Shown: positions 18,577-64,000 of the stretch, one piece after another
Numbering within the stretch: position 1 is the first letter of the stretch
How the letters are laid out: each line of letters opens with the position of its first letter
Sequence record: PP526941.1
Length of the DNA: 64,000 nt
DNA from: Escherichia phage vB_EcoM_ECO78
Reading direction: 5' to 3' (one strand)
Translations under genes and position numbers: made by a program
Notes under the pieces: model-generated
The model's input: the letters and a program-made list of their open reading frames with translations, nothing else
Database searches by the model: none
What the model was told of the DNA's origin: nothing

Positions 18577-21500
18577 ATGGCCGAGATTAAAAGAAAGTTC
18601 AGAGCAGAAGATGGTCTGGACGCAGGTGGTGATAAAATAATCAACGTAGCTTTAGCTGATCGTACCGTAGGAACTGACGGTGTTAACGTTGATTACTTAA
18701 TTCAAGAAAACACAGTTCAACAATATGATCCAACTCGTGGATATTTAAAAGATTTTGTAATCATTTATGATAACCGCTTTTGGGCTGCTATAAATGATAT
18801 TCCAAAACCAGCAGGAGCTTTTAATAGCGGACGCTGGAGAGCATTACGTACGGACGCAAACTGGATTACAGTCTCATCTGGTTCATATCAATTAAAATCC
18901 GGTGAAGCTATTTCGGTTAACACTGCAGCTGGTAATGACATCACGTTTACTTTACCATCTTCTCCAATTGATGGTGATACTATCGTTCTCCAAGATATTG
19001 GAGGAAAACCTGGAGTTAACCAAGTTTTAATTGTAGCTCCAGTGCAAAGTATTGTAAACTTCAGAGGTGAACAAGTACGTTCAGTACTAATGACTCATCC
19101 AAAGTCACAGCTAGTTTTAATTTTTAGTAATCGTCTGTGGCAAATGTATGTTGCTGATTATAGTAGAGAAGCTATAGTTGTAACACCAGCGAATACTTAT
19201 CAAGCGCAATCAAATGATTTTATCGTACGTAGATTTACTTCTGCTGCACCGATAAATATTAAACTTCCACGATTTGCTAATCATGGCGATATTATTAATT
19301 TCGTTGATTTAGATAAACTAAATCCACTTTATCATACAATTGTTACTACATACGATGAAACGACTTCAGTACAAGAAGTTGGAACTCATTCCATTGAAGG
19401 CCGTACAACGATTGACGGTTTCTTGATGTTTGATGATAATGAGAAATTGTGGAGATTGTTTGACGGGGATAGTAAAGCGCGTTTACGTATCATAACGACT
19501 AATTCTAATATTCGTCCAAATGAAGAAGTTATGGTATTTGGTGCGAATAACGGAACAGCTCAGACAATTGAGCTTAAGCTTCCAACTAATATTTCTGTTG
19601 GTGATACTGTTAAAATTTCCATGAATTACATGAGAAAAGGACAAACAGTTAAAATCAAAGCTGCTGATGAAGATAAAATTGCTTCTTCAGTTCAATTGCT
19701 GCAATTCCCAAAACGCTCAGAATATCCACCTGAAGCTGAATGGGTTACAGTCCAAGAATTAGTTTTTAATGGTGAAACTAATTATGTTCCAGTTTTAGAG
19801 CTTGCTTATATAGAAGATTCTGATGGAAAATACTGGGTTGTACAGCAAAATGTTCCAACCGTAGAAAGAGTTGATTCTTTGAATGATTCTACTAGAGCAA
19901 GATTAGGCGTAATTGCTTTAGCTACACAAGCCCAAGCTAATGTCGATTTAGAAAATTCTCCGCAAAAAGAATTAGCAATTACTCCAGAAACATTAGCTAA
20001 CCGTACTGCTACTGAAACTCGCAGAGGTATTGCAAGAATAGCAACTACTGCTCAAGTGAATCAGAACACCACATTCTCTTTTGCTGACGATATTATCATC
20101 ACTCCTAAAAAGCTGAATGAAAGAACTGCTACAGAAACTCGCAGAGGTGTTGCTGAAATTGCTACGCAACAGGAAACTAATGCAGGAACCGATGATACTA
20201 CAATCATCACTCCTAAAAAGCTTCAAGCTCGTCAAGGTTCTGAATCATTATCTGGTATCGTAACTTTTGTATCTACTGCAGGTGCTACTCCAGCTTCTAG
20301 CCGTGAATTAAATGGTACGAATGTTTATAATAAAAACACTAATAATTTAGTTGTTTCACCTAAAGCTTTGGATCAGTATAAAGCTACTCCAACACAGCAA
20401 GGTGCAGTAATTTTAGCAGTTGAAAGTGAAGTAATTGCTGGACAAAGTCAGGAAGGATGGGCAAATGCAGTTGTAACGCCAGAAACGTTACATAAAAAGA
20501 CATCAACTGATGGAAGAATTGGTTTAATTGAAATTGCTACGCAAAGTGAAGTTAATACAGGAACTGATTATACTCGTGCAGTCACTCCTAAAACTTTAAA
20601 TGACCGTAGAGCAACTGAAAGTTTAAGTGGTATAGCTGAAATTGCTACACAAGTTGAATTCGACGCAGGCGTCGACGATACTCGTATCTCTACACCATTA
20701 AAAATTAAAACCAGATTTAATAGTACTGATCGTACTTCTGTTGTTGCTCTATCTGGATTAGTTGAATCAGGAACTCTCTGGGACCATTATACCCTTAATA
20801 TTCTTGAAGCAAATGAGACACAACGTGGTACACTTCGTGTAGCTACACAAGTTGAAGCTGCTGCAGGAACATTAGATAATGTTTTAATAACTCCTAAAAA
20901 GCTTTTAGGTACTAAATCTACCGAATCGCAAGAAGGTGTTATTAAAGTTGCAACACAGTCTGAAACTGTGACTGGAACGTCAGCAAATACTGCTGTATCT
21001 CCAAAAAATTTAAAGTGGATTGTGCAGAGTGAACCAACATGGGCTGCTACTACGGCGATAAGAGGGTTTGTTAAAACTTCATCTGGTTCAATTACATTCG
21101 TTGGTAATGATACAGTCGGTTCTACACAGGACTTAGAGTTATACGAGAAAAATAATTATGCAGTATCACCATATGAATTAAACCGCGTACTTGCTAACTA
21201 TTTGCCATTGAAAGCAAAAGCTGCAGATAGTAATTTATTGGATGGTCTAGATTCATCTCAGTTCATTCGTAGGGATATTGCCCAGACAGTTAATGGTTCA
21301 CTAACCTTAACCCAACAAACGAATCTGAGTGCCCCTCTTGTATCATCTAGTACTGCTACGTTTGGTGGTTCAGTTTCGGCAAATAGTACATTAACTATTT
21401 CTAACTCTGGAACAGCAACTCGTCTGATTTTTGAGAAAGGACCTCAAACTGGAACTAATCCAGCGCAGACGATGACTATCAGAGTTTGGGGAAATCAGTT

Positions 21501-22446
21501 TGGCGGCGGATCAGATACAACACGTTCTACTGTATTTGAAGTTGGTGATGAAACGTCTAATCATTTTTATTCTCAACGTAATAAAGCTGGTAATATAACG
21601 TTTAGCATTAATGGTACTGTGATGCCAATAAATGTTAACGCTTCAGGCACGTTGAATGCGAATGGCGTTGCAACATTCGGTCGTTCAGTTACAGCCAATG
21701 GTGAATTCATTAGCAAGTCTGCAAATGCTTTTAGAGCAATTAGTGGTGATTACGGATTCTTTATTCGTAATGATGCTGCTAATACCTATTTTATGCTCAC
21801 TGCATCCGGTGATCAGACTGGCGGATTTAATGGATTACGTCCTTTGGCTATTAATAATGCATCTGGCCAAGTAACGATTGGTGAAAGCTTAATCATTGCC
21901 AAAGGTGCTACTATAAATTCAGGTGGTTTGACTGTTAACTCGAGAATTCGTTCTCAGGGTAATAAAACATCTGATTTATATACCCGTGCACCAACATCTG
22001 ATACAGTAGGATTCTGGTCAATTGATATTAATGATTCAGCTACTTATAACCAGTTCCCAGGTTATTTTAAAATGGTTGAAAAAACTAATGAAGTGACTGG
22101 ACTTCCATACTTAGAACGTGGCGAAGAAGTTAAATCTCCTGGTACACTGACTCAGTTTGGTAATACACTTGATTCGCTTTACCAAGATTGGATTACTTAT
22201 CCAACGACGCCAGAAGCACGTACCACTCGCTGGACACGTACATGGCAGAAAACCAAAAACTCTTGGTCAAGTTTTGTTCAGGTATTTGACGGAGGTAACC
22301 CTCCTCAACCATCTGATATCGGTGCTTTACCATCTGATAATGCTACAATGGGAAATCTTACTATTCGTGATTTCTTACGAATTGGTAATGTTCGCATTGT
22401 TCCTGACCCAGTGAATAAAACGGTTAAATTTGAATGGGTTGAATAA
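18577..22446 (+). CDS. 34: gp34 long tail fibre proximal subunit (1289 aa)
   Basis: Length identical to T4 gp34; GGAG RBS; internal degenerate repeats. Confidence 0.95.
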   Translation: MAEIKRKFRAEDGLDAGGDKIINVALADRTVGTDGVNVDYLIQENTVQQYDPTRGYLKDFVIIYDNRFWAAINDIPKPAGAFNSGRWRALRTDANWITVSSGSYQLKSGEAISVNTAAGNDITFTLPSSPIDGDTIVLQDIGGKPGVNQVLIVAPVQSIVNFRGEQVRSVLMTHPKSQLVLIFSNRLWQMYVADYSREAIVVTPANTYQAQSNDFIVRRFTSAAPINIKLPRFANHGDIINFVDLDKLNPLYHTIVTTYDETTSVQEVGTHSIEGRTTIDGFLMFDDNEKLWRLFDGDSKARLRIITTNSNIRPNEEVMVFGANNGTAQTIELKLPTNISVGDTVKISMNYMRKGQTVKIKAADEDKIASSVQLLQFPKRSEYPPEAEWVTVQELVFNGETNYVPVLELAYIEDSDGKYWVVQQNVPTVERVDSLNDSTRARLGVIALATQAQANVDLENSPQKELAITPETLANRTATETRRGIARIATTAQVNQNTTFSFADDIIITPKKLNERTATETRRGVAEIATQQETNAGTDDTTIITPKKLQARQGSESLSGIVTFVSTAGATPASSRELNGTNVYNKNTNNLVVSPKALDQYKATPTQQGAVILAVESEVIAGQSQEGWANAVVTPETLHKKTSTDGRIGLIEIATQSEVNTGTDYTRAVTPKTLNDRRATESLSGIAEIATQVEFDAGVDDTRISTPLKIKTRFNSTDRTSVVALSGLVESGTLWDHYTLNILEANETQRGTLRVATQVEAAAGTLDNVLITPKKLLGTKSTESQEGVIKVATQSETVTGTSANTAVSPKNLKWIVQSEPTWAATTAIRGFVKTSSGSITFVGNDTVGSTQDLELYEKNNYAVSPYELNRVLANYLPLKAKAADSNLLDGLDSSQFIRRDIAQTVNGSLTLTQQTNLSAPLVSSSTATFGGSVSANSTLTISNSGTATRLIFEKGPQTGTNPAQTMTIRVWGNQFGGGSDTTRSTVFEVGDETSNHFYSQRNKAGNITFSINGTVMPINVNASGTLNANGVATFGRSVTANGEFISKSANAFRAISGDYGFFIRNDAANTYFMLTASGDQTGGFNGLRPLAINNASGQVTIGESLIIAKGATINSGGLTVNSRIRSQGNKTSDLYTRAPTSDTVGFWSIDINDSATYNQFPGYFKMVEKTNEVTGLPYLERGEEVKSPGTLTQFGNTLDSLYQDWITYPTTPEARTTRWTRTWQKTKNSWSSFVQVFDGGNPPQPSDIGALPSDNATMGNLTIRDFLRIGNVRIVPDPVNKTVKFEWVE

Positions 22447-22454
22447 GAGGTATT

Positions 22455-23570
22455 ATGGAAAAATTTATGGCAGAGTTTGGACAAGGATATGTCCAAACGC
22501 CGTTTTTATCGGAAAGCAATTCAGTAAGATATAAAATAAGCATAGCGGGTTCTTGCCCGCTTTCTACTGCAGGGCCATACGTTAAATTTCAAGATAATCC
22601 TGTAGGAAGTCAAACATTTAGCGCAGGTCTTCATTTAAGAGTTTTTGATCCTTCCACAGGAGCATTAGTTGATAGTAAGTCATATGCTTTTTCTACTTCA
22701 AATGATACTACATCAGCTGCTTTTGTTAGTTTCATGAATTCTTTGACGAATAATCGAATTGTTGCTATATTAACTAACGGAAAGGTTAATTTTCCTCCTG
22801 AAGTAGTATCTTGGTTAAGAACCGCCGGAACGTCTGCTTTTCCATCTGATTCTATATTGTCAAGATTCGACGTATCATATGCTGCTTTTTATACTTCTTC
22901 TAAAAGAGCTATCGCATTAGAGCATGTTAAACTGAGTAATAGAAAAAGCACAGATGATTATCAAACTATTTTAGATGTAGTATTTGACAGTTTAGAAGAT
23001 GTCGGAGCTACAGGATTTCCAAGAAGAACGTATGAAAGCGTTGAGCAATTTATGTCAGCTGTTGGTGGAACTAATAACGAAATTGCGCGTCTACCAACTT
23101 CAGCTGCTATAAGTAAATTATCTGATTATAATTTAATTCCTGGTGATGTTCTTTATCTTAAAGCTCAGTTATATGCTGATGCTGATTTACTTGCACTTGG
23201 AACTACGAATATATCCATTCGATTTTATAATGCATCAAATGGATATATTTCCTCGACACATGCTGAATTTACTGGGCAAGCTGGGTCATGGGAATTAAAG
23301 GAAGATTATGTAGTTGTTCCAGAAAACGCAGTAGGATTTACGATATACGCACAGAGAACTGCACAAGCTGGCCAAGGTGGCATGAGAAATTTAAGCTTTT
23401 CTGAAGTATCAAGAAATGGCGGCATTTCAAAACCCGCTGAATTTGGCGTCAACGGTATTCGAGTTAATTATATCTGTGAATCTGCTTCACCTCCGGATAT
23501 AATGGTACTTCCTACACAAGCATCGTCTAAAACTGGTAAAGTGTTTGGGCAAGAATTTAGAGAAGTATAA
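22455..23570 (+). CDS. 35: gp35 long tail fibre hinge connector (371 aa)
   Basis: Size and position in 34-38 operon. Confidence 0.9.
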   Translation: MEKFMAEFGQGYVQTPFLSESNSVRYKISIAGSCPLSTAGPYVKFQDNPVGSQTFSAGLHLRVFDPSTGALVDSKSYAFSTSNDTTSAAFVSFMNSLTNNRIVAILTNGKVNFPPEVVSWLRTAGTSAFPSDSILSRFDVSYAAFYTSSKRAIALEHVKLSNRKSTDDYQTILDVVFDSLEDVGATGFPRRTYESVEQFMSAVGGTNNEIARLPTSAAISKLSDYNLIPGDVLYLKAQLYADADLLALGTTNISIRFYNASNGYISSTHAEFTGQAGSWELKEDYVVVPENAVGFTIYAQRTAQAGQGGMRNLSFSEVSRNGGISKPAEFGVNGIRVNYICESASPPDIMVLPTQASSKTGKVFGQEFREV

Positions 23571-23574
23571 ATTG

Positions 23575-23599
23575 AGGGAGCCTTCGGGTTCCCTTTTTC
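23575..23599 (+). terminator. rho-independent terminator after gene 35 (UUCG tetraloop hairpin plus U5)
   Basis: AGGGAGCC-UUCG-GGUUCCCU followed by TTTTT. Confidence 0.6.
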
Positions 23600-23601
23600 T
23601 T

Positions 23602-23609
23602 TATAAATA
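23602..23609 (+). promoter_or_regulatory. late promoter TATAAATA for gene 36
   Basis: Exact motif 24 nt upstream of gene 36 ATG. Confidence 0.7.
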
Positions 23610-23632
23610 CTATTAAAATAAAGGGGCATACA

Positions 23633-24295
23633 ATGGCTGATTTAAAAGTAGGTTCAACAACCGGGGGCTCTGTCATTTGGCATCAAGGAAATTTTCCATT
23701 GAATCCAGCCGGTGACGATGTACTCTATAAATCATTTAAAATATATTCAGAATATAATAAACCACAAGCTGCTGATAACGATTTCGTTTCTAAAGCTAAT
23801 GGTGGTACTTACGCCGCGACTGTTCGATTTAATGGAGGCGTACATGTTCCTACTATAGGTAGTAGTCAACAGTGTGGTGTTTATCCAGGTAACGGTGATG
23901 CAGCTACTTTTGCTATGGCAAATATTGACATCGTTTCGTGGAATGGTATTGGTTTTAAATCATCACAAGGTTCAGCAGACCGAACTGTTGTAATTAACGC
24001 TCGTACCGGTGATATCAGCAGTAAGGGCGGTTTTTATGCAACTGGTCCTGTCCGTTCTAACGCTACTGCTCCGGTTGCAGCAAATGACCTTACTAGAAAG
24101 GACTATGTTGATGGAGCAATAAATACTGTTACGGAAAATGCGAACTCTAGAGTGTTACGATCTGGCGACACTATGACGGGTAACTTAACCGCACCAAATT
24201 TTTTCTCGCAGAATCCTGCGTCTCAACCTTCACACGTTCCACGATTTGACCAAATCGTAATTAAGGATTCTGTTCAAGATTTCGGCTATTATTAA
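23633..24295 (+). CDS. 36: gp36 long tail fibre distal connector (220 aa)
   Basis: Size and position. Confidence 0.9.
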
Positions 24296-24303
24296 GAGGA
24301 CTT

Positions 24304-27300
24304 ATGGCTACTTTAAAACAAATACAATTTAAAAGAAGCAAAACCGCAGGTGCACGTCCTGCTGCTTCAGTATTAGCCGAAGGTGAATTGGCTATAAACT
24401 TAAAAGATAGAACACTTTTTACTAAAGATGATTCGGGAAATATCATTGATCTAGGTATTGCTAAAGGCGGTCAAATTGATGGAAATGTGACTATCAATGG
24501 TCTTTTAAGATTAAATGGGGATTATACACAAACTGGTGGAATGACCGTAAATGGACCTATTGGTTCTACTGAAGGCGTATCCGCCTTAGTTTTTAGATCT
24601 ATGCGAGGGTCATTTTACGCAAGAGCAACAAATGATACTTCCAATGCCCATCTTTGGTTTGAAAATACAAATGGATCAGAGAGAGGGGTTTTATATTCAA
24701 AACCACAGTCTGAAAATGAAGGCGTAATTACAATGCGTGTTCGTCAAGGAACCGCTGCGGGAGCTCAAAATTCAGAATTTCATTTCATTTCTACTGATGG
24801 CGGTATCTTCCAGGCACGCAAATTAACTGCTTTAACTTCTATTAGTACACCAACTATTAGTGTTAATTTAATTAATCATGATTCTAAAGCCTTTGGACAA
24901 TACGATTCGCAATCATTAGTTCAGTATGTTTATCCTGGAACTGGTGAAACTAACGGAGTAAACTATCTTCGTAAAGTTCGAGCTAAATCAGGTGGCACTA
25001 TGTGGCATGAGCTTTGTACTGCTCAGACTGGCCAGGCTGATGAAATGTCTTGGTGGACAGGTAATACTCCATCATCTAAACAATATGGCATTCGTAATGA
25101 CGGACGAATGGCAGGCCGTAATAGCCTTGCATTAGGTACATTCACTACGGGTTTCCCGTCTAGTGATTATGGTAACGTCGGTGTAATGGGCGATAAGTAT
25201 CTTGTTCTCGGTGACACTGTAACCGGTCTGAAATATATTAAGCAAGGTGTTTATGATTTAGTTGGTGGAGGTTATTCCGTTGCATCTGTTACTCCAGATA
25301 GTTTCCGTAGTACTCGTAAAGGTATATTTGGTCGCTCAGAAGACCAAGGTGCTACATGGAACATGCCTGGAAACAACGCCGCGTTTTTATCGGTTCAAAC
25401 ACAAGCTGATGAAAACACTGCTGGAGACGGCCAGACACATATTGGCTATAACTCAGGCGGTAAAATGAACCACTATTTCCGTGGTAAAGGCAAAACTAAT
25501 ATTAATACTCAAGAAGGCATGGAAGTTAACCCGGGTATTCTTAAACTAGTAACCGGTGCTAACAGTATTAGCTTTAACGCTGCAACAGGTAATATTGATT
25601 CTACATTAGCTTTTCGTCTTAATAAAGGTATAATTATTGATGGACCTGATAATCAGGGATTCCAATTTAATGCTCCGACGGCTGTAGATGGTACTAGAAG
25701 CATATACTGGAATAGTGGCACTCGCGCAGGTCAAAACAAAAACCCTGTTACAGTTAAAGTGTGGGGTAATTCATTTAACGCATCTGGTGATCGTAGTCGT
25801 GAAACCGTTTTTGAAGTAGCTGATGGGCAAGGTTACCATTTTTATTCTCAACGCGTAGCTCCTGCACCTGGTTCGACTGTCGGGCCTATTCAACTCCGAG
25901 TTAATGGTGGTTTATTAACTTCTGGTGGTATTACTGCTTCCGGTTCTATTGTTACTGAATCAAGTTTAGTTGCAAATAATGGATTATCTGTAAATGGTCA
26001 GGCTAAATTTGGCGGAACAGCAAACGCACTAAGAATTTGGAACGCTGAATATGGTGCTATTTTCCGTCGTTCGGAAAGTAACTTTTATATTATTCCAACC
26101 AATCAAAACGAAGGCGAAAGCGGAGACATTCACAGCTCTTTGAGACCTGTGAGAATAGGATTAAACGATGGCATGGTTGGGTTAGGAAGAGATTCTTTTA
26201 TAGTAGATCAAAATAATGCTTTAACTACTATAAACAGTAACTCTCGCATTAATGCCAACTTTAGAATGCAATTAGGACAAAATGCTTATATAGATATTGA
26301 GGCTTCTGATGGAATTCGCCCAACAGGTTGTGGTTCCTTTGCATCTCAGAATGACGTAAACGTCAGAGCTCCAATTTATATGAATATAGAGCGTACTGCT
26401 ACTTCTGAATATATTCCTATTGTTAAACAGCGTTATGTGCAAGGTGATAGCACTTATTCTATTGGGACATTAATTAATCAAGGAGATTTCCGTGTTCATT
26501 ACCGCCAAGGCACCGGTACGGGTGGCACTGATTTGAGTTGGGAATTCCGTCGCACAGGCGATTTCCGCGCGGCAGGTAAAATTATTGCTGGTGCTGCTAC
26601 TCTTGGCACTGATGGTAATATCACCGGTGGTTCTGGTAACTTTGCTAACCTGAATACCACATTAAATCGTAAGGTAAATTCCGGATTTGTAACATACGGT
26701 GCAACGGCCGGATGGTACAAATTCGCTACAGTAACGATGCCACAATCTACTTCTACTGTTTCATTTACTATAACTGGTGGTAAAGGATTTAATACCGGAC
26801 TGTTTACACAATGTGCTATAACAGAAATTGTTCTTCGTACTGGTAATGACCGCCCAGCAGGTTTAAACGCCGTGATGTATACCAGAACAGCGGCAGGTCT
26901 TACTGATATTGCTGTAGTTAATACCTCAGGAAATACATATGATGTCTATGTTGAAGCTGGCACTTATGCCAACCAATTAGCTTATACCTGGCATACAGTT
27001 GATAATGCTACCGTAGAAGTTATTGGCGCTTTTGGTCCTACTCAAGACCCGGTAGATTCTTTGCCGGCTAATTATGTTAAAGGCCAAGTAGCTAACATGC
27101 TTAACAACCTGGTAGACACAGGTAAAGTAAAACGTTATGTAGCAGATTCTGAAATTGCTATTAATAACCAAACGGGTCTTCGTATTACGAGTAATTATGA
27201 TAGATCAGGTTCTAATTCCGTTTTGTTTCGAAATGACGGTGGAAGCTTCTATATTTTACTGACTGACAAAAACTCTTCAGACGGCGATAATAAAGCAACT

Positions 27301-28227
27301 GAAGGTGATTGGAATGGAAAACGACCATTTTCAATTGATATGACTGCTGGTACTGTTCGTCTTGGCGAAAATACTTCTTTTAGTAAAGATGTTACTATTG
27401 ATGGAAACATTAATTCACGAGTTAAAGTTGTCGGACAGTGGAATGTTAGCTTTTCTGATATTTCAGATGTGACTCGTGACCGTTCTGCATTTTTAGTGAA
27501 TACGGGTGGCATTTCCAATACAAGTCAATCTTATTACCCGCTATTTTCTGGATACAGTTTTTTAACTGACGCGGGTTATCGCCAATCGTTTGAATTTGGA
27601 TGGTTAGGTGTTTCTGGTACTTGGCGTCAAGGTATTATTCGCATGCGTGGTGACAACGCATCGGGGCAACAGGCTCGTTGGACTTTTGATATGGATGGAA
27701 CATTTTATGCTCCTAAATTGGCTTGCGGTTCTACCGGTGCCCTCGGTATTAACACATCCAACGGATGGGGTGGTAACTCAATTGCAATTGGTGATAGCGA
27801 TACTGGTTTTAGACAAGTAGGCGATGGGCTTTTAGAAGCGTGGGCGAACAACGTTAAAGTTGTTAGATTCACTTCGAGCGAAGTTTATTCCGAGAAAAAC
27901 GTCAATGCTCCTAACGTTTATATTCGTTCTGATGTTCGCTTGAAATCTAATTTTAAACCTATTAAAAATGCGCTCGAAAGGGTTGAGCAACTTGATGGTT
28001 TAATCTATGACAAAGCTGAATATATAGGCGGTGAACCTGTTCAAACTGAAGCGGGTATTATAGCTCAAACGTTACAAGACGTTTTACCAGAAGCTGTCCG
28101 TGAATCAGAAGATAGCAAGGGTAATAAAATACTCACTGTTTCTTCTCAAGCCCAGATTGCTCTTCTGGTTGAAGCTGTGAAAACACTTTCTGCTCGTGTA
28201 AAAGAACTTGAATCTAAACTTATGTAA
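24304..28227 (+). CDS. 37: gp37 long tail fibre distal subunit (1307 aa) with C-terminal intramolecular chaperone domain
   Basis: Conserved fibre N-terminus [12 protein letters not shown]; C-terminal SDVRLK...coiled-coil tail typical of S74-type self-cleaving chaperone. Confidence 0.9.
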
Positions 28228-28228
28228 A

Positions 28229-28256
28229 AGAGGGCTTCGGCCCTCTAAGGATTTTT
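28229..28256 (+). terminator. UUCG-tetraloop hairpin after gene 37 (attenuator or RNA 3' end)
   Basis: AGAGGGC-UUCG-GCCCUCU at 28229-28246, T-run 28252-28256. Confidence 0.4.
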
Positions 28257-28257
28257 A

Positions 28258-29043
28258 ATGGCAATTGTAGGTGTTCCTGGCTGGATTGGTGAATCTGCTG
28301 TGAATGAAACTGGACAACGTTGGATGGATGCTGCGATGAAAGCTGTTCGTGTTTCAGTTCCCGGCTGGATGAGCTCAATGGCTGGACAATCTAAAGAAAT
28401 TCATTATAGCATTGGTGCTAGCAATTCTTACAATAAAGACACTCTTATTAACTGGATGAAAGCACAGGGGTCTACTCCGGTAGTAATTACTATTACAGGA
28501 AATATTGTTTCTTCATCGACAGGTCAACCATGCTTAGATTTTCCTAGCTCATTAACTAATGCATACGTGACACTTAATATCAATTCAGGCGTGCATGTTT
28601 GGGGTCGCGGCGGGAATGGTGGAAATAACTCTGCTGGCGGAGCAGGAGGAACTGCAATAAATAACGGAATTGGAACTAGATTACGTATTAATAACAATGG
28701 TGTTATCGCAGGCGGCGGTGGCGGCGGTGGCGGCGGATACTACTCTCCTTTTTCACAAATGAGATTGACTTTTGGTGGAGGAGGCGGTCGTCCATTTGGT
28801 GCGGCTGGCGGGTCTGCTAATATGGAACAGGGTGCTACTGCTGGTACTATTTCTGCGCCCGGTAAAGGGTCTGTCAACGGTATCTATAATGGCGGGAATG
28901 GTGGTGATGCCGGTGCCGCAGGAGGTAAATGTAATATTCGCGGTCAAGGATCAGAATATAATGGCGGCGCTGCTGGTAAAGCTGTTACTGGTAATGCTCC
29001 AACTTGGACTAAAGTTGGTACAATATATGGTGCAAGAGTATAA
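28258..29043 (+). CDS. 38: gp38 receptor-recognising adhesin, T2-type (261 aa, glycine-rich motifs)
   Basis: Conserved N-terminus plus five poly-Gly blocks characteristic of T2-type gp38. Confidence 0.85.
   Translation: MAIVGVPGWIGESAVNETGQRWMDAAMKAVRVSVPGWMSSMAGQSKEIHYSIGASNSYNKDTLINWMKAQGSTPVVITITGNIVSSSTGQPCLDFPSSLTNAYVTLNINSGVHVWGRGGNGGNNSAGGAGGTAINNGIGTRLRINNNGVIAGGGGGGGGGYYSPFSQMRLTFGGGGGRPFGAAGGSANMEQGATAGTISAPGKGSVNGIYNGGNGGDAGAAGGKCNIRGQGSEYNGGAAGKAVTGNAPTWTKVGTIYGARV
28711..28737 (+). repeat. (GGCGGCGGT)x3 simple repeat encoding poly-glycine inside gp38
   Basis: Direct reading of sequence. Confidence 0.9.
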
Positions 29044-29074
29044 TTTTGAATAAATATCCTTAAAAGGAGGGTCT

Positions 29075-29731
29075 ATGGCAGCACCTAGAATATCATTTTC
29101 GCCCTCTGATATTCTGTTGGGTGTTCTAGATCGCTTGTTCAAAGATAACGCTACCGGGAAGGTTCTTGCTTCCCGGGTAGCTGTCGTAATTCTTTTGTTT
29201 ATGATGGCGATTGTTTGGTATAGGGGAGATAGTTTCTTTGAGTACTATAAGCAATCAAAGTATGAAACATACAGTGAAATTATTGAAAAGGAAAGAAATG
29301 CACGCTTTGAATCTGTCGCCCTGGAACAACTCCAGATAGTTCATATATCATCTGAGGCAGACTTTAGTGCGGTGTATTCTTTCCGCCCTAAAAACTTAAA
29401 CTATTTTGTTGATATTATAGCATATGAAGGAAAATTACCTTCAACAATAAGTGAAAAATCACTTGGAGGATATCCTGTTGATAAAACTATGGATGAATAT
29501 ACAGTTCATTTAAATGGACGTCATTATTATTCCAACTCAAAATTTGCTTTTTTACCAACTAAAAAGCCTACTCCTGAAATAAATTACATGTACAGTTGTC
29601 CATATTTTAATTTGGATAATATCTATGCTGGAACGATAACCATGTACTGGTATAGAAATGATCATATAAGTAATGACCGCCTTGAATCAATATGTTCTCA
29701 GGCGGCCAGAATATTAGGAAGGGCTAAATAA
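29075..29731 (+). CDS. t: holin t (218 aa)
   Basis: Length and sequence match T4 holin; single N-terminal TM segment. Confidence 0.92.
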   Translation: MAAPRISFSPSDILLGVLDRLFKDNATGKVLASRVAVVILLFMMAIVWYRGDSFFEYYKQSKYETYSEIIEKERNARFESVALEQLQIVHISSEADFSAVYSFRPKNLNYFVDIIAYEGKLPSTISEKSLGGYPVDKTMDEYTVHLNGRHYYSNSKFAFLPTKKPTPEINYMYSCPYFNLDNIYAGTITMYWYRNDHISNDRLESICSQAARILGRAK

Positions 29732-58777: not shown

Positions 58778-59122
58778 TTAAAAGAATTTAAATTTTTTCT
58801 TTGACCTTTTATTAAATGCATCTTGTAGTTGCATTGTAATACATTTTTCTACATGAGGAGCTAACTCAGCTTTTCTTTCTTGGTCAAGAACAGCAAAGTC
58901 CATTACGACTTTTCCATCAACCCAATCTAATTTTGTCACATACACAATGTGTGTAGAACCATCTTCTAGTTTAATGACAATCTCCTGGATAACATTTTCC
59001 ATAGCGGATTTAATTATCTTAAGAGACTCATTAAAAAGACGTTCTTTTCTTTCTTCTTCCCCCTCCGAAGAGGGGGATTCATCGATAATTTCTAGATCTA
59101 AATCTAAATCATCTTTATTCAT
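58778..59122 (-). CDS. 40: gp40 (114 aa from first ATG; 120 aa if GTG at 59140)
   Basis: Position between 41 and uvsX; start uncertain. Confidence 0.55.
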   Translation of the reverse strand: MNKDDLDLDLEIIDESPSSEGEEERKERLFNESLKIIKSAMENVIQEIVIKLEDGSTHIVYVTKLDWVDGKVVMDFAVLDQERKAELAPHVEKCITMQLQDAFNKRSKKKFKFF

Positions 59123-60296
59123 TAAATTCTTCCATATCACTTAACTGTTCGAGGTCAGTTTCTAAATCAGCTGCTGATTTACTTTTACTTTCTGGAGATT
59201 TAAATTTTTCAACCTTTGAGTTAATCAATTCATCAACTTCAGCTTCAACAATTTCATTACTATCAATAGCACCTAACTGATAAGCACGTTTAATAGCATC
59301 TCGGAATGGTTGATGCTTAAATAAAGGACCCCAGAATGTAGTGCAGTTGGTATCTTTTGCACGCCAAGATTTTTCTTCGCGAATCATCTCGCCGGTTTCT
59401 TCGTCAAGAAATTCACGAGCATACCAGCCATTTTTAGGTTTTACCACGAATCCTAATTCTAGAGCCATATCTAACAATCCAGAATAAGGATCGATACCAC
59501 CGTCAAATTTAACATCAATAAAGAATTTACTTTTTTCTTTAACGGTACGAGATTTTTCTACATTTAGAACAAATTGATACCCCTGAAGATCAGAACCATC
59601 TTTAATCTGGCGCTTACCGATAATGAATACAGTATCAGCCGAATACATTACGCCTGTACCACCTGTCATCACGGTTTTACTAAACATTTCAATTGTTTCA
59701 ATTGTATGGTTAACCGCAACGCACGGAATGTTTTTAATACTAAAATAAGGAGTAACAATACGAAATAATGACTTCAGCGATTTAGCACGAGTCATATCTG
59801 CCACAGATTTTTCATTCAAGGCATCTTCAGTTTCTTTCTTAGAAGCCATATTACCGATTGAGTCGATGAATACAATAACCTTTTCACCACGCTCAATAGC
59901 TTCAAGCTGATTCACCATATCAATTTTCAGCTGTTCAACTGACTGAATTGGTGTATGAATTACTCGTTCCGGGTCAACTCCCATGGATCGCAAATAAGCT
60001 GGAGTAATACCAAATTCGCTATCATAGAATAGACATACCGCGTCAGGATATTTGTTCAAATATGCTGCAACCATAGTCAAAGACATATTTGATTTAAAGT
60101 GTTTAGAAGGCCCTGCGAAAATAGTTAAACCAGACTGCATACCGCCATCAATCGCACCAGAAATAGCAATATTAAGCATTGGGATTTTTGTGCGAATTAC
60201 ATCCTTTTCATTAAAGAATTTAGATGTAGTCAGTTCAGCAGTCATTTTAGAAGTGGAAGCTTTAATCAAACGGGATTTTAAATCTGCAATAGACAT
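59115..60296 (-). CDS. uvsX: UvsX recombinase (RecA-like, 393 aa)
   Basis: RecA fold Walker A GPSKHFKS; T4 UvsX size. Confidence 0.92.
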   Translation of the reverse strand: MSIADLKSRLIKASTSKMTAELTTSKFFNEKDVIRTKIPMLNIAISGAIDGGMQSGLTIFAGPSKHFKSNMSLTMVAAYLNKYPDAVCLFYDSEFGITPAYLRSMGVDPERVIHTPIQSVEQLKIDMVNQLEAIERGEKVIVFIDSIGNMASKKETEDALNEKSVADMTRAKSLKSLFRIVTPYFSIKNIPCVAVNHTIETIEMFSKTVMTGGTGVMYSADTVFIIGKRQIKDGSDLQGYQFVLNVEKSRTVKEKSKFFIDVKFDGGIDPYSGLLDMALELGFVVKPKNGWYAREFLDEETGEMIREEKSWRAKDTNCTTFWGPLFKHQPFRDAIKRAYQLGAIDSNEIVEAEVDELINSKVEKFKSPESKSKSAADLETDLEQLSDMEEFNE

Positions 60297-60373
60297 TCAT
60301 TTTTTCCATAGGCATCATTATATTTTCCTCACTGGTTAAAGATAGAGTAATTATAACACAATAAATTTAGGCA

Positions 60374-61216
60374 TTAATCAACTGCTATTGGATGAATAGC
60401 ATTAAACTTATGAAATGCTTCTGATTTTTCTTTACGCGAAACACACATGCGAAGAACCTTTAGTGGTTCATCTTCTTCACCCAACGATTTTCTCTTTTCA
60501 ATATTCGATGTTTTCCAACGAGCTTGCTCTGGAAACTCTCTATTGATTTGCTCAAGCGCTCTATTATGTTTAGAATTACTACGAATTGAGCTACATCCGC
60601 CTGGAGCTTGCGCTTTTCCAGATACAACCAGATATTTGAACAAGGCCAAATGCGGATAACCTTGATTAATTAAATTGAGAAATGCATACATATCTTCACA
60701 TAAATCAATTTTTCCATACCCAATTTGTTCTGTCGTAAGTTTTCCAAGGTCATACCAGGTATTCGTGAATCCATATGAATTTTCACGGTAATTACCCCAA
60801 GATGAAGTAATTTTAAAAATAGGTAGACGAGCATGACCGTGATAATACCCGCAATCCATAGCATCTTCAACGTATTGAATCAATTCATAGAACTGTTCAC
60901 GAGTCAATTGATTGACTTTATCTACGCAACGCCGATCATCTCTTTTTCGCATTGAACTCATACGAATAGTAGTATCATCGTCAATCATCCAGATTCGTTG
61001 GCCTGCATACATATCAGTAATTACTTTACGAGTTCCAGCAATTCCGTTTACGTCATCAGGAATAGTTACAATTTTAGCTCTAGACCCATAGGCATCATAA
61101 TAAGCTTTTTCTTCATGTTCACGTACTACAATATGCGGTTCATAATCAGTCGGAAACATATCAAGGGCAGAAACTGCCCCTACACGTTGATAGCTCGGAA
61201 TTACGAATTGAATCAT
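60374..61216 (-). CDS. GT-A type glycosyltransferase (280 aa), candidate beta-glucosyl-HMC alpha-glucosyltransferase of T2/T6 type
   Basis: DxD-like MIDDDTT motif; occupies the T4 beta-gt locus but is not T4 beta-gt; ATG at 61214-61216. Confidence 0.55.
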   Translation of the reverse strand: MIQFVIPSYQRVGAVSALDMFPTDYEPHIVVREHEEKAYYDAYGSRAKIVTIPDDVNGIAGTRKVITDMYAGQRIWMIDDDTTIRMSSMRKRDDRRCVDKVNQLTREQFYELIQYVEDAMDCGYYHGHARLPIFKITSSWGNYRENSYGFTNTWYDLGKLTTEQIGYGKIDLCEDMYAFLNLINQGYPHLALFKYLVVSGKAQAPGGCSSIRSNSKHNRALEQINREFPEQARWKTSNIEKRKSLGEEDEPLKVLRMCVSRKEKSEAFHKFNAIHPIAVD

Positions 61217-61953
61217 TTCCACTCACCTTTATAGTCTTTTTTCACAATATGAGTTTCGCCAGTATTCCACCAATGATCAACCAAGTAAAAATGACGAGAA
61301 TATACATGAAGACTTCCAACATTCCATATAATAGAACCTGCTTTATACTGACGAGTTGAATCGCCTGCATTCAAATCAGATACTAATTTATCTAATACGT
61401 ATTTTTGCCATGCATAATCATTACGGAATCCGAAGACCACGTCATTTGAGCGCATGCTTACTACTGCATTGACTTTCTTATCACGAATCAAGTACTGTAC
61501 TGTATTAGTACACATGAAATCTGACATACCATCTTTATTGTAGTCAAACTGCATAGATGGACGAGTATAAATCATGATACCGCGCCGAGAATCAGGATTT
61601 TGACCAAGTTCAGCTAAACACATATCATACTGGGCATAGTTATCTTCTGACCAGATAGCCCAACCATAATTCGAGTTAATTTCGCCTTTAGAAGATGCTA
61701 CTTGTTGCCAAATCTTCGGTGTTTCACCCGGAATATCTTTAACGAACAAGCTCTTAGATTTATACCATTCAAGTTCGCGCTGAATGTATTCATCATTAAG
61801 AGCGCCAAAAATAAACGGTTCATCTGCTACAAATGATGCGCCAATAATTTCAATAGTTTTAACGCCAGTTTTATCAACTACGAAATCTTTTTCCTTTAAT
61901 GCAAGCCCCAAATGAAGACGGATTTCTTCAACTGTCATAGAGTCACTAATCAT
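61213..61953 (-). CDS. 42: dCMP hydroxymethylase (246 aa)
   Basis: Sequence MISDSMTVEEIRLHLGLALKEKDF matches T4 gp42. Confidence 0.92.
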   Translation of the reverse strand: MISDSMTVEEIRLHLGLALKEKDFVVDKTGVKTIEIIGASFVADEPFIFGALNDEYIQRELEWYKSKSLFVKDIPGETPKIWQQVASSKGEINSNYGWAIWSEDNYAQYDMCLAELGQNPDSRRGIMIYTRPSMQFDYNKDGMSDFMCTNTVQYLIRDKKVNAVVSMRSNDVVFGFRNDYAWQKYVLDKLVSDLNAGDSTRQYKAGSIIWNVGSLHVYSRHFYLVDHWWNTGETHIVKKDYKGEWK

Positions 61954-61960
61954 TTAAACC

Positions 61961-62110
61961 TCAATTGATACATTCATATTTAACTTGTAACAGTAATAAG
62001 CTCCAACCTAAAATAATAGTTGGAATCATAAGAGGAACCGTTACACTATAGTATATACTTATTATAATCATCAAGATTAAAAGCAATGCTGCTATAATTT
62101 TGCTTTTCAT
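61961..62110 (-). CDS. small hydrophobic peptide (49 aa)
   Basis: Hand-translated MKSKIIAALLLILMIIISIYY...; ATGA overlap with imm stop. Confidence 0.35.
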   Translation of the reverse strand: MKSKIIAALLLILMIIISIYYSVTVPLMIPTIILGWSLLLLQVKYECIN

Positions 62111-62358
62111 TCCTTCTCTCTGATGATAATTACCTGATTTGGCTGCGCAGACTTTTTAGTTTCACCCGCAATTGACCAAATAAATGTAATAAACCAACCA
62201 ATAATTGACCAGTTAAACAGTAAAGACGTGAAAAAGATTCCTACTGTCGATTTTGACCCACGCATCAAGGCAATAAACCATGGAAGCATGTATATAATAA
62301 TAGCCAACACGCCTGAAACTAAAACCATAAAAATTGAACCTGCTACTAAAGTTTCCAT
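62107..62358 (-). CDS. imm: Imm superinfection immunity membrane protein (83 aa)
   Basis: Two TM helices; size and position next to gene 42. Confidence 0.75.
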   Translation of the reverse strand: METLVAGSIFMVLVSGVLAIIIYMLPWFIALMRGSKSTVGIFFTSLLFNWSIIGWFITFIWSIAGETKKSAQPNQVIIIREKE

Positions 62359-62365
62359 CTTTTCC

Positions 62366-62746
62366 TCACTTAGTCAAATTTTTTACGCATGAATTATAAG
62401 AATTCACTACATACTCCATCGGAGCATTTTTACCTGTACGCCACTGGTAATTATTAGCCCAATTTGCCCAAAGCACGGCACAGTAGTTTTCAATTTTTTC
62501 TTCGCGTGTAATTACATCTGAATTACGATATGCTTGAGCAGATTCATCTGGACGAATAGCTTCGTCAAAATTCGCCTGCATTTGTTCTATTGTTTGCTTT
62601 GGAGCTTCTTTATAACACTTGACATTAGGATTATAAAATTTGCTTGAACAATTTACAATTTTTCCTACATCAGACTGATTTACTACCGGTCCTTGAGCTA
62701 CACAACCAGTAAGACCCAATGCAATAACCAAAATAGCGATTTTCAT
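62366..62746 (-). CDS. predicted lipoprotein (126 aa, lipobox LTGC)
   Basis: Signal peptide MKIAILVIALGLTGC. Confidence 0.5.
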   Translation of the reverse strand: MKIAILVIALGLTGCVAQGPVVNQSDVGKIVNCSSKFYNPNVKCYKEAPKQTIEQMQANFDEAIRPDESAQAYRNSDVITREEKIENYCAVLWANWANNYQWRTGKNAPMEYVVNSYNSCVKNLTK

Positions 62747-62758
62747 AACAATTTCCTC

Positions 62759-63010
62759 TTAAAACTTAACAAATAATTTTAAAGCATCTTCAGTTTTAAT
62801 TCCTTTTCTTACACCCATAACAGAAATTGGCTGTGACTGAAATTTTCCTTTGCCATTATAAATTTCTAATCCAGTCACCATTCCATTTTGTTCTATAATA
62901 CCATAAGTATTACCTTCATTTTCGAATTCTTTAACTTTAAAGAGTTTATTAGCTTTTTCTGCATTAACAACTTTTAAATTTTGAATAAAATTAGTTTGAA
63001 TGTTTTTCAT
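62759..63010 (-). CDS. hypothetical protein (83 aa from MKNIQTNFIQ)
   Basis: Track N-terminus crosses the promoter; ATG 63008-63010 follows GGAGGA RBS. Confidence 0.45.
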   Translation of the reverse strand: MKNIQTNFIQNLKVVNAEKANKLFKVKEFENEGNTYGIIEQNGMVTGLEIYNGKGKFQSQPISVMGVRKGIKTEDALKLFVKF

Positions 63011-63038
63011 TTTGTGTTCCTCCGTAGTTGATAGTTGT

Positions 63039-63068
63039 ATAGTACCATGGAAGAACAGTCTTGTAAAC
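63039..63068 (-). promoter_or_regulatory. early promoter (extended repeat family)
   Basis: GTTTACA / TACTAT; flanks shared with 15201, 32501, 36110 copies. Confidence 0.5.
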
Positions 63069-63151
63069 AGTTTTGTGAAAAAAATTTTAATGAATTTACA
63101 GGACCTAGAATCATCTATTTTTCCTAAGTATAGATTTATATTACTTGTATG

Positions 63152-63172
63152 AAAAAGGGACCCGGAGGTCCC
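63152..63172 (-). terminator. rho-independent terminator after gene 43
   Basis: GGGACC-CGGA-GGTCCC hairpin with A-run upstream on plus (U-run on minus transcript). Confidence 0.55.
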
Positions 63173-63185
63173 TAGATTTATTCTA

Positions 63186-64000
63186 TCAGCCAAACAGGAA
63201 GTCTAACGAAGCTTTTTCTTCATAGTCCATACCAGCCGATTCACACATACCCGCAAGCGGTTTAACAAACGATTTTTGGAACAAGGTTGAGTAGTCAATC
63301 CAAGACAGTACGTCAGAACGAATTTCTTTTGGAAGTTCTGTACCTGATGGCCAAGCAATGCACTTATCACCAAATGGATTTCCTTCACGTAATGGAAGAA
63401 CCATTACTTTATTTCCATCCAAAATTGGAGCTACACCCAGACCGCTAACAGCTCGACGATAAGTTAGCACACCACGAATATGGAACGGGCATTTAAATCC
63501 TGGCCAACCTTTATCATCATATTTCGCTATATCGTTCGCAGTTTTTACTTCAGCAATAACTTTATAGTCAAGTTGACGATATTCTTTCTCGAAGTTCTTG
63601 TAGTATTCTTGGACAGACTCTTCACCTTCCTGAAGAATACGACGAATACTTTCTTCGAGAGCTTCTTGTACTGCTTTTGGTGTTGAACTCTGTTGAGTTT
63701 CCATGCCCATGATTTTTAGATGCGGTTCAGCAAATCGTTTATCTTCCATATCATAAACGTTCAGAGCATAACGCTTTTTCGCTTTCCAAAATCCACCAAC
63801 ACCCTTTGAACCAAGCGGAGGGCAAGAAATAGCTTCACGGTCCATATGCATCAGATGCTCGCGGTTATTCATATAATCACATAACTCACGATATGCAACA
63901 TCAATCATAGGTTCCATCTTTTTCTTACCAAACTGATTCATGAATTCAACTAAATCGTTCTGCTCTTTGAATCGGTCAAGACCTACTTTTTCAATAACTT
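63186..64000 (-). CDS. 43: DNA polymerase gp43, C-terminal portion (gene continues past window end)
   Basis: Family B polymerase C-terminus ending SLDFLFG (clamp-binding tail). Confidence 0.9.
   Translation of the reverse strand, partial: VIEKVGLDRFKEQNDLVEFMNQFGKKKMEPMIDVAYRELCDYMNNREHLMHMDREAISCPPLGSKGVGGFWKAKKRYALNVYDMEDKRFAEPHLKIMGMETQQSSTPKAVQEALEESIRRILQEGEESVQEYYKNFEKEYRQLDYKVIAEVKTANDIAKYDDKGWPGFKCPFHIRGVLTYRRAVSGLGVAPILDGNKVMVLPLREGNPFGDKCIAWPSGTELPKEIRSDVLSWIDYSTLFQKSFVKPLAGMCESAGMDYEEKASLDFLFG

Follow-up and report, generated by a model that had tools for sequence, protein, structure and literature searches.

Which glycosyltransferase is encoded between uvsX and gene 42 in Escherichia phage vB_EcoM_ECO78, and what does its identity predict for the modification of the phage DNA? 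The question is raised by a 280-residue reading frame in a window of 64,000 nucleotides (the whole stretch of DNA that was analysed; record PP526941.1), standing where T4 has the gene of its β-glucosyltransferase (β-gt). Our analysis makes it very probable that this reading frame, ba-gt, is the orthologue of the T2/T6 βα-glucosyltransferase (βα-GT), the enzyme that adds a second glucose to α-glucosyl-hydroxymethylcytosine (α-glucosyl-hmC).

The reading frame and its translation start

The coding sequence of the βα-glucosyltransferase, variously called ba-gt, ggt or, in T2-type phages, 'b-gt', lies on the minus strand at 60374..61216 and specifies 280 residues and a stop codon. According to the list of open reading frames and the sequence, it begins with the ATG at 61216 and stops at 60374-60376. 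The mechanical list had placed the start two codons earlier, at a GTG at 61222, which gives 282 residues; the ATG is the annotated start in T2, UFV13, EH2 and FelixPlatter. Within the translation-start region (61213..61227, minus strand), as read from the sequence, a purine-rich GGTGAG (61222-61227) precedes the ATG (61214-61216) by 5 nt, and this ATG and the TGA stop codon of gene 42 (61213-61215) overlap in an ATGA. This region shows no differences among the window, T2, T6 and UFV13, and we infer that translation of ba-gt is coupled to that of gene 42.

A preliminary description of this DNA had placed a 280-residue frame with a DxD-type motif between uvsX and gene 42, and both the frame (60374-61216) and the motif were found as described. 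The motif is the DDD of residues 79-81 (60974..60982, minus strand), assigned from sequence and alignment to the DxD-type class that binds metal and nucleotide-sugar; it belongs to the stretch RIWMIDDDTTIR, residues 74-85 of the protein (60962-60997).

A terminator-like, GC-containing stem-loop with a 9-bp stem, TAGGGGCAGTTTCTGCCCTTG, was also observed inside ba-gt, in codons 12-19 (61162-61182, minus strand). Among T2, T6 and UFV13 it hardly varies (one base is changed in UFV13), and it may be either a chance occurrence or an element of mRNA structure.

Identity of the encoded protein

BLASTP over 280 residues gives the protein 98.6% identity with the T2 'beta-glucosyl-HMC-alpha-glucosyl-transferase' and 97.9% with its T6 counterpart. 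These values, together with the slot between uvsX and gene 42, bear out the assignment made in the preliminary description to a beta-glucosyl-HMC-α-glucosyltransferase of the T2/T6 type; the gene order uvsX / ba-gt / 42 / imm is identical in T2 and T6. Profile searches agree: the protein matches PF20691 (TAGT, TET-associated glycosyltransferase) at 38.8 bits (E=1.3e-09), above the gathering cut-off of 27.5 bits, with residues 3-207 aligned to model positions 2-205 of 205, and it matches PHROG 842, 'beta-glucosyl-HMC-alpha-glucosyltransferase', with E=8.6e-89. No model for it was found in NCBIfam. Winkler and Rüger reportedly cloned the βα-GT gene of T2 and T6 in 1993; it is annotated in RefSeq and is present in hundreds of genomes of T4-like phages. 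The orthology, synteny, family membership, fold class, DDD conservation and purifying selection of ba-gt were all observed in this analysis, and the gene is an ordinary, intact copy of a well-known T2/T6 gene.

Predicted fold and active site

A phmmer search of PDB sequences with the ba-gt protein returned no relative with a solved structure and only chance matches (E>1). An AlphaFold2 model, for which 10 sequences were aligned, reached a pTM of 0.71 and a mean pLDDT of 69.7, which amounts to moderate confidence overall, with pLDDT at 84-95 for residues 1-80 and below 50 for residues 126-150 and the C-terminal tail. The fold predicted by this model is GT-A (nucleotide-diphospho-sugar transferase), not GT-B. 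Its fourth β-strand leads into the conserved DxD motif, and the DDD comes directly after the strand formed by residues 74-77, the canonical position of the DxD motif in GT-A enzymes; D79, D80 and D81 are invariant in the 10 aligned sequences, the most distant of which shows 28% BLASTP identity. This location agrees with the published conclusion for the T6 enzyme, whose AF3 model is GT-A, sister to GT2, and is placed in pfam20691 (bioRxiv 10.64898/2025.12.06.692756). The structural matches listed for our model are of the GT-A type, and the T4 β-gt and α-gt chains are not among them. GT2-like GT-A enzymes are inverting; a GT2-like fold of the ba-gt enzyme would imply an inverting mechanism, which would fit a β-linked product formed from UDP-α-glucose.

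A cassette exchanged relative to T4

That the protein does not resemble T4 β-gt had also been claimed beforehand, and the comparison with the three T4 proteins upholds this. The best BLASTP match to T4 β-gt has E=12 and extends over 8 residues, with no hit to the family of that enzyme, PF09198, at E<=10; the best match to T4 α-gt has E=2.8, with no hit to the α-gt Pfam family (PF11440, GT-B); and BLASTP against T4 SegA gave nothing significant. Thus neither a strong similarity to T4 β-gt nor an absent glycosyltransferase fold prediction was found, the former standing at E=12 and the latter giving way to a predicted GT-A fold.

At the nucleotide level, blastn of the window against T4 shows homology ending at 60284 and returning at 61231; in the T4 record the two borders are at 23555 and 25497. 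The intervening segment (60285..61230) has no nucleotide homology to T4, which carries segA and b-gt in its place, about 1.94 kb in all. The position of the break therefore identifies the 0.95-kb segment as a clean cassette replacement of the 1.94-kb segA and b-gt segment.

These results bear on the idea that ba-gt encodes a highly diverged β-glucosyltransferase of the T4 type, with a GT-B fold, kept at its ancestral locus. Such a protein would share with T4 b-gt its position, as ba-gt does, and nothing further points that way: the BLASTP match of E=12 over 8 residues, the empty PF09198 search and the fold, predicted to be GT-A, refute it, and the T4 homology breaks off exactly at the gene borders. 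We regard its probability as vanishingly small.

Neighbouring genes and other features of the window

Immediately upstream of ba-gt is gene 42 (61213..61953, minus strand), which encodes the dCMP hydroxymethylase that makes the hmC precursor and was recognized by thymidylate-synthase family matches and by synteny. This synteny holds with both T2 and T4, and the gene 42 region shows 96.5% nucleotide identity to the T4 stretch covering the gene 42 annotated there. The downstream neighbour, uvsX (RecA-like recombinase; 59115..60296, minus strand), was assigned by a RecA family match and by synteny with T2 and T4, and is about 90% identical in nucleotides to T4. The window also includes genes 41 and 40, imm and the end of gene 43, and with these neighbours the genome is therefore of the Tequatrovirus type. 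Over 12 kb the best matches are UFV13, ADUt, PP01, T2 and Ozark, with 95-97% nucleotide identity.

A consensus scan of 59000-62500 yielded 13 promoters against 14.6 expected from shuffled sequence and 3 terminators against 1.5; the counts are not above those of shuffled sequence and carry no regulatory information. The 77 nt that separate ba-gt from uvsX include, on the minus strand (60350-60358), a perfect extended -10 element, TGTTATAAT, which precedes the uvsX ATG by about 50 nt; it escaped the scan because its -35 hexamer is poor. Since T4 has segA at this place, the element could be a uvsX promoter specific to T2-type phages.

Two further reading frames were observed upstream of gene 42. 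Between imm and gene 42, a strongly hydrophobic frame of 49 residues (MKSKIIAALLLILMIIISIYYSV..., 61961-62110, minus strand) overlaps the imm stop codon by 4 nt. T2, T4, T6, UFV13 and EH2 all have it uninterrupted, at 86-100% identity; of the records inspected, only that of EH2 annotates it, and T4 RefSeq and the T2, T6 and UFV13 tables do not, so that it is possibly an overlooked gene for a small membrane protein. Between imm.1 and gene 43 lies an extra frame (62759-63193, minus strand) of 144 residues when read from a TTG start. Its real start is probably an internal ATG, giving about 84 residues; T2 annotates a hypothetical protein there, and T4 has no gene at this position.

Elsewhere in the window, a run of plus-strand frames (18577-29731) encodes proteins of 1289, 371, 220, 1307, 261 and 218 residues, which by size and order would fit the long-tail-fibre genes 34-37, a gp38 adhesin of the T2/T6 type and the holin t. 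If so matched, the run would suit a phage more like T2/T6 than T4. A search for tRNA genes in the window found none.

Selection and allelic state

Between the window copy and T2 ba-gt there are about 33 synonymous and 4 non-synonymous differences (dN/dS 0.028), and against UFV13 dN/dS is 0.020. Being full length, with the DDD intact and dN/dS at 0.02-0.03, ba-gt is therefore under purifying selection and not a relic. An inactive relic, contributing nothing to DNA modification, as is perhaps the case in some laboratory stocks of T6, would find precedent in two public T6 records with lesions in the βα-GT gene (AP018814 and MH550421), which suggest that loss of the gene may be tolerated in the laboratory. 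The full length and intact DDD of the window copy, the excess of synonymous over non-synonymous changes relative to T2, and the conserved start region and overlap with gene 42 all argue against such a state here, and we consider it very unlikely.

The T6 lesions were noted for themselves. In AP018814 (1501-2340 of the compared stretch) one codon of the DDD is missing, leaving IDDTT and 279 residues; in MH550421 (2138-2980 of the compared stretch) there is a TAG at codon 10, and the gene is annotated from a later start, with 261 residues. They are odd, since T6 is the reference phage for 72% gentiobiosylation, and may be stock-specific mutations or sequencing errors.

In comparison with seven other copies, A65V is the sole private amino acid change of the window protein. 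At the positions private to T2 (H11, S251) and to T6 (N40, G55, H106) it has the consensus residue. Assignment to a T2-like or a T6-like allele by diagnostic residues was attempted and fails, as the consensus state is found at every private position, so that the extent of gentiobiosylation is unpredictable from the ba-gt sequence.

Distribution among phages

In a collection of 50,697 phage records, ba-gt is present at 90-97% nucleotide identity in 474, and a homologue was detected by tblastn in 688. The best protein matches, among T-even phages of Escherichia, Shigella and Yersinia, reach 99.6% identity; towards the T2, T6, EH2 and FelixPlatter proteins the values are 98-99.6%. The EH2 copy is 96.9% identical to the window gene in nucleotides and 99.3% in amino acids, the TB37 copy is 96.4% identical in nucleotides, and the NR1 and Geo proteins are 98.9% and 97.5% identical, respectively. 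While proteins are up to 99.6% identical, no database copy exceeds 96.9% in nucleotides: the window gene diverges by at least 3% from all 474 copies, and the differences are nearly all synonymous. This ceiling of 96.9% therefore places the phage in a lineage absent from the 50,697-record collection, at least at the ba-gt locus.

Discussion

We propose the following pathway for this phage. Deoxycytidine would be replaced by 5-hydroxymethyl-dC through the products of gene 42, immediately upstream of ba-gt, and gene 56; next, α-glucose would be put on the hmC of the DNA by a primary α-glucosyltransferase whose gene lies outside the window; and the ba-gt enzyme, a small and presumably DxD-dependent member of PF20691 with a predicted GT-A fold, would use UDP-glucose to attach a second glucose in β-1,6 linkage to the α-glucose, yielding gentiobiosyl-hmC. 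With ba-gt in the slot of T4 segA and the GT-B β-gt, the DNA would therefore be of the T2/T6 type, containing hmC, α-glucosyl-hmC and gentiobiosyl-hmC without β-glucosyl-hmC, and gentiobiosyl-hmC is a probable constituent of it. The chemistry and the defence phenotypes ascribed to ba-gt here are those that the literature on T6 and near-identical phages would lead one to expect.

In T2 and T6, α-GT is the primary enzyme and βα-GT adds the second glucose to α-glucosyl-hmC to give gentiobiosyl-hmC (bioRxiv 10.64898/2025.12.06.692756; PMC13160076). The name 'α-glucosyltransferase' misleads, as the second glucose is β-linked and no α-linkage is made (PMC11078745; bioRxiv 10.64898/2025.12.06.692756). 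Analyses by HPLC/MS found about two-thirds α-gentiobiosyl-methyl-dC and about one-third 5-hmdC in the DNA of EH2, TB37 and NR1, which have α-gt and a TAGT protein without β-gt, and 5-hmdC, α-glucosyl and α-gentiobiosyl forms at 1:2:2 in that of Geo (PMC13390438).

The ba-gt enzyme is thus a secondary transferase that needs α-gt. Searched by tblastn with T4 α-gt, β-gt and SegA, the whole window yielded no match at E<=1. UFV13, a relative, has a-gt about 11.6 kb further along than ba-gt, a distance that would put it beyond the right end of the window, and by analogy with its relatives the phage presumably has α-gt. Were the genome instead to lack α-gt or to have another primary transferase, the ba-gt enzyme would extend a different first sugar.

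This leads to the proposal that the enzyme is a primary or otherwise different glycosyltransferase, acting on hmC or β-glucosyl-hmC or with another sugar donor. The family gives it some footing, since homologues paired with β-GT have been reported and 288 of 753 phage genomes carry a solitary homologue with no recognizable primary glycosyltransferase, so that acceptor specificity is not uniform in the TAGT family (bioRxiv 10.64898/2025.12.06.692756), and it would fit with α-gt not being seen within the window. The window protein, however, is 98-99.6% identical to those of T2, T6, EH2 and FelixPlatter, with A65V as its sole change from the consensus, and those phages have α-gt and chemically make α-gentiobiosyl-hmC (PMC13390438; PMC11078745); in the nearest relative checked, α-gt stands where it is expected. 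A different activity is accordingly most improbable, and we retain the secondary βα-GT as the preferred reading.

How much gentiobiosyl-hmC such an enzyme leaves in the DNA is a separate matter. Despite about 97% identity between the T2 and T6 enzymes, gentiobiosyl content differs about 15-fold between the two phages, being about 5% in T2 and about 72% in T6. Finding the gene therefore tells which modification to expect and not how much of it. A pattern outside the T2-T6 range, due to the window allele (at least 3% diverged in nucleotides, with the private A65V) or its genomic partner, could arise if the genome lacked α-gt or had another primary transferase; we give it very little chance.

The ba-gt gene marks the phage as a T-even of the T2/T6 rather than the T4 type, and in this respect its value is one of annotation only. 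DNA of the T2/T6 type would, by analogy, change which modification-sensing host defences can act on the phage. Deletion of ba-gt from T6 leaves only α-glucosyl-hmC and heightens sensitivity to the Brig1 glycosylase, which is specific for α-glucosyl-hmC and to which gentiobiosyl-hmC lowers sensitivity (PMC11078745). Gentiobiosyl-hmC is also resistant to the deglucosylating enzyme BapA (PMC13160076), and BrxU, of the GmrSD family, cleaves all tested modifications, gentiobiosyl-hmC included (PMC13390438). The identity of ba-gt is thus useful for predicting host range and sensitivity to defences, and opens no new question.

Comparison with known systems

The closest known system is the βα-GT of T2 and T6 (ba-gt, ggt or g-gt), with which the window copy has in common its length of 280 residues, the slot between uvsX and gene 42, the ATGA overlap with gene 42 and the DDD motif. 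Four substitutions separate it from T2, and five substitutions and one indel from T6 (record AP018814), and its nucleotide divergence from the database copies is put at 3-5%; judged by sequence, these differences indicate no change of function. The βα-GT-like proteins of T4-like phages of Klebsiella, Enterobacter, Cronobacter, Salmonella and Serratia are likewise encoded beside gene 42, and at 48-66% identity they are much more diverged from the window protein.

PF20691, the TAGT family, has a GT-A fold and is a sister group of CAZy GT2. According to the literature, its T-even branch is set apart by the use of the dCMP-hydroxymethylase pathway instead of a TET/JBP dioxygenase and by glucosylating a sugar that the base already bears, not the hydroxymethyl group of the base. 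T4 β-gt (b-gt; PF09198; GT-B; PDB 1JG7) has the same genomic slot beside gene 42, which in T4 also holds the homing endonuclease gene segA, and is unrelated to ba-gt in sequence and fold. T4 β-gt and the T2/T6 βα-GT share UDP-glucose as donor and the stereochemistry of a β-linked product, but T4 β-gt acts on bare hmC, whereas βα-GT acts on α-glucosyl-hmC.
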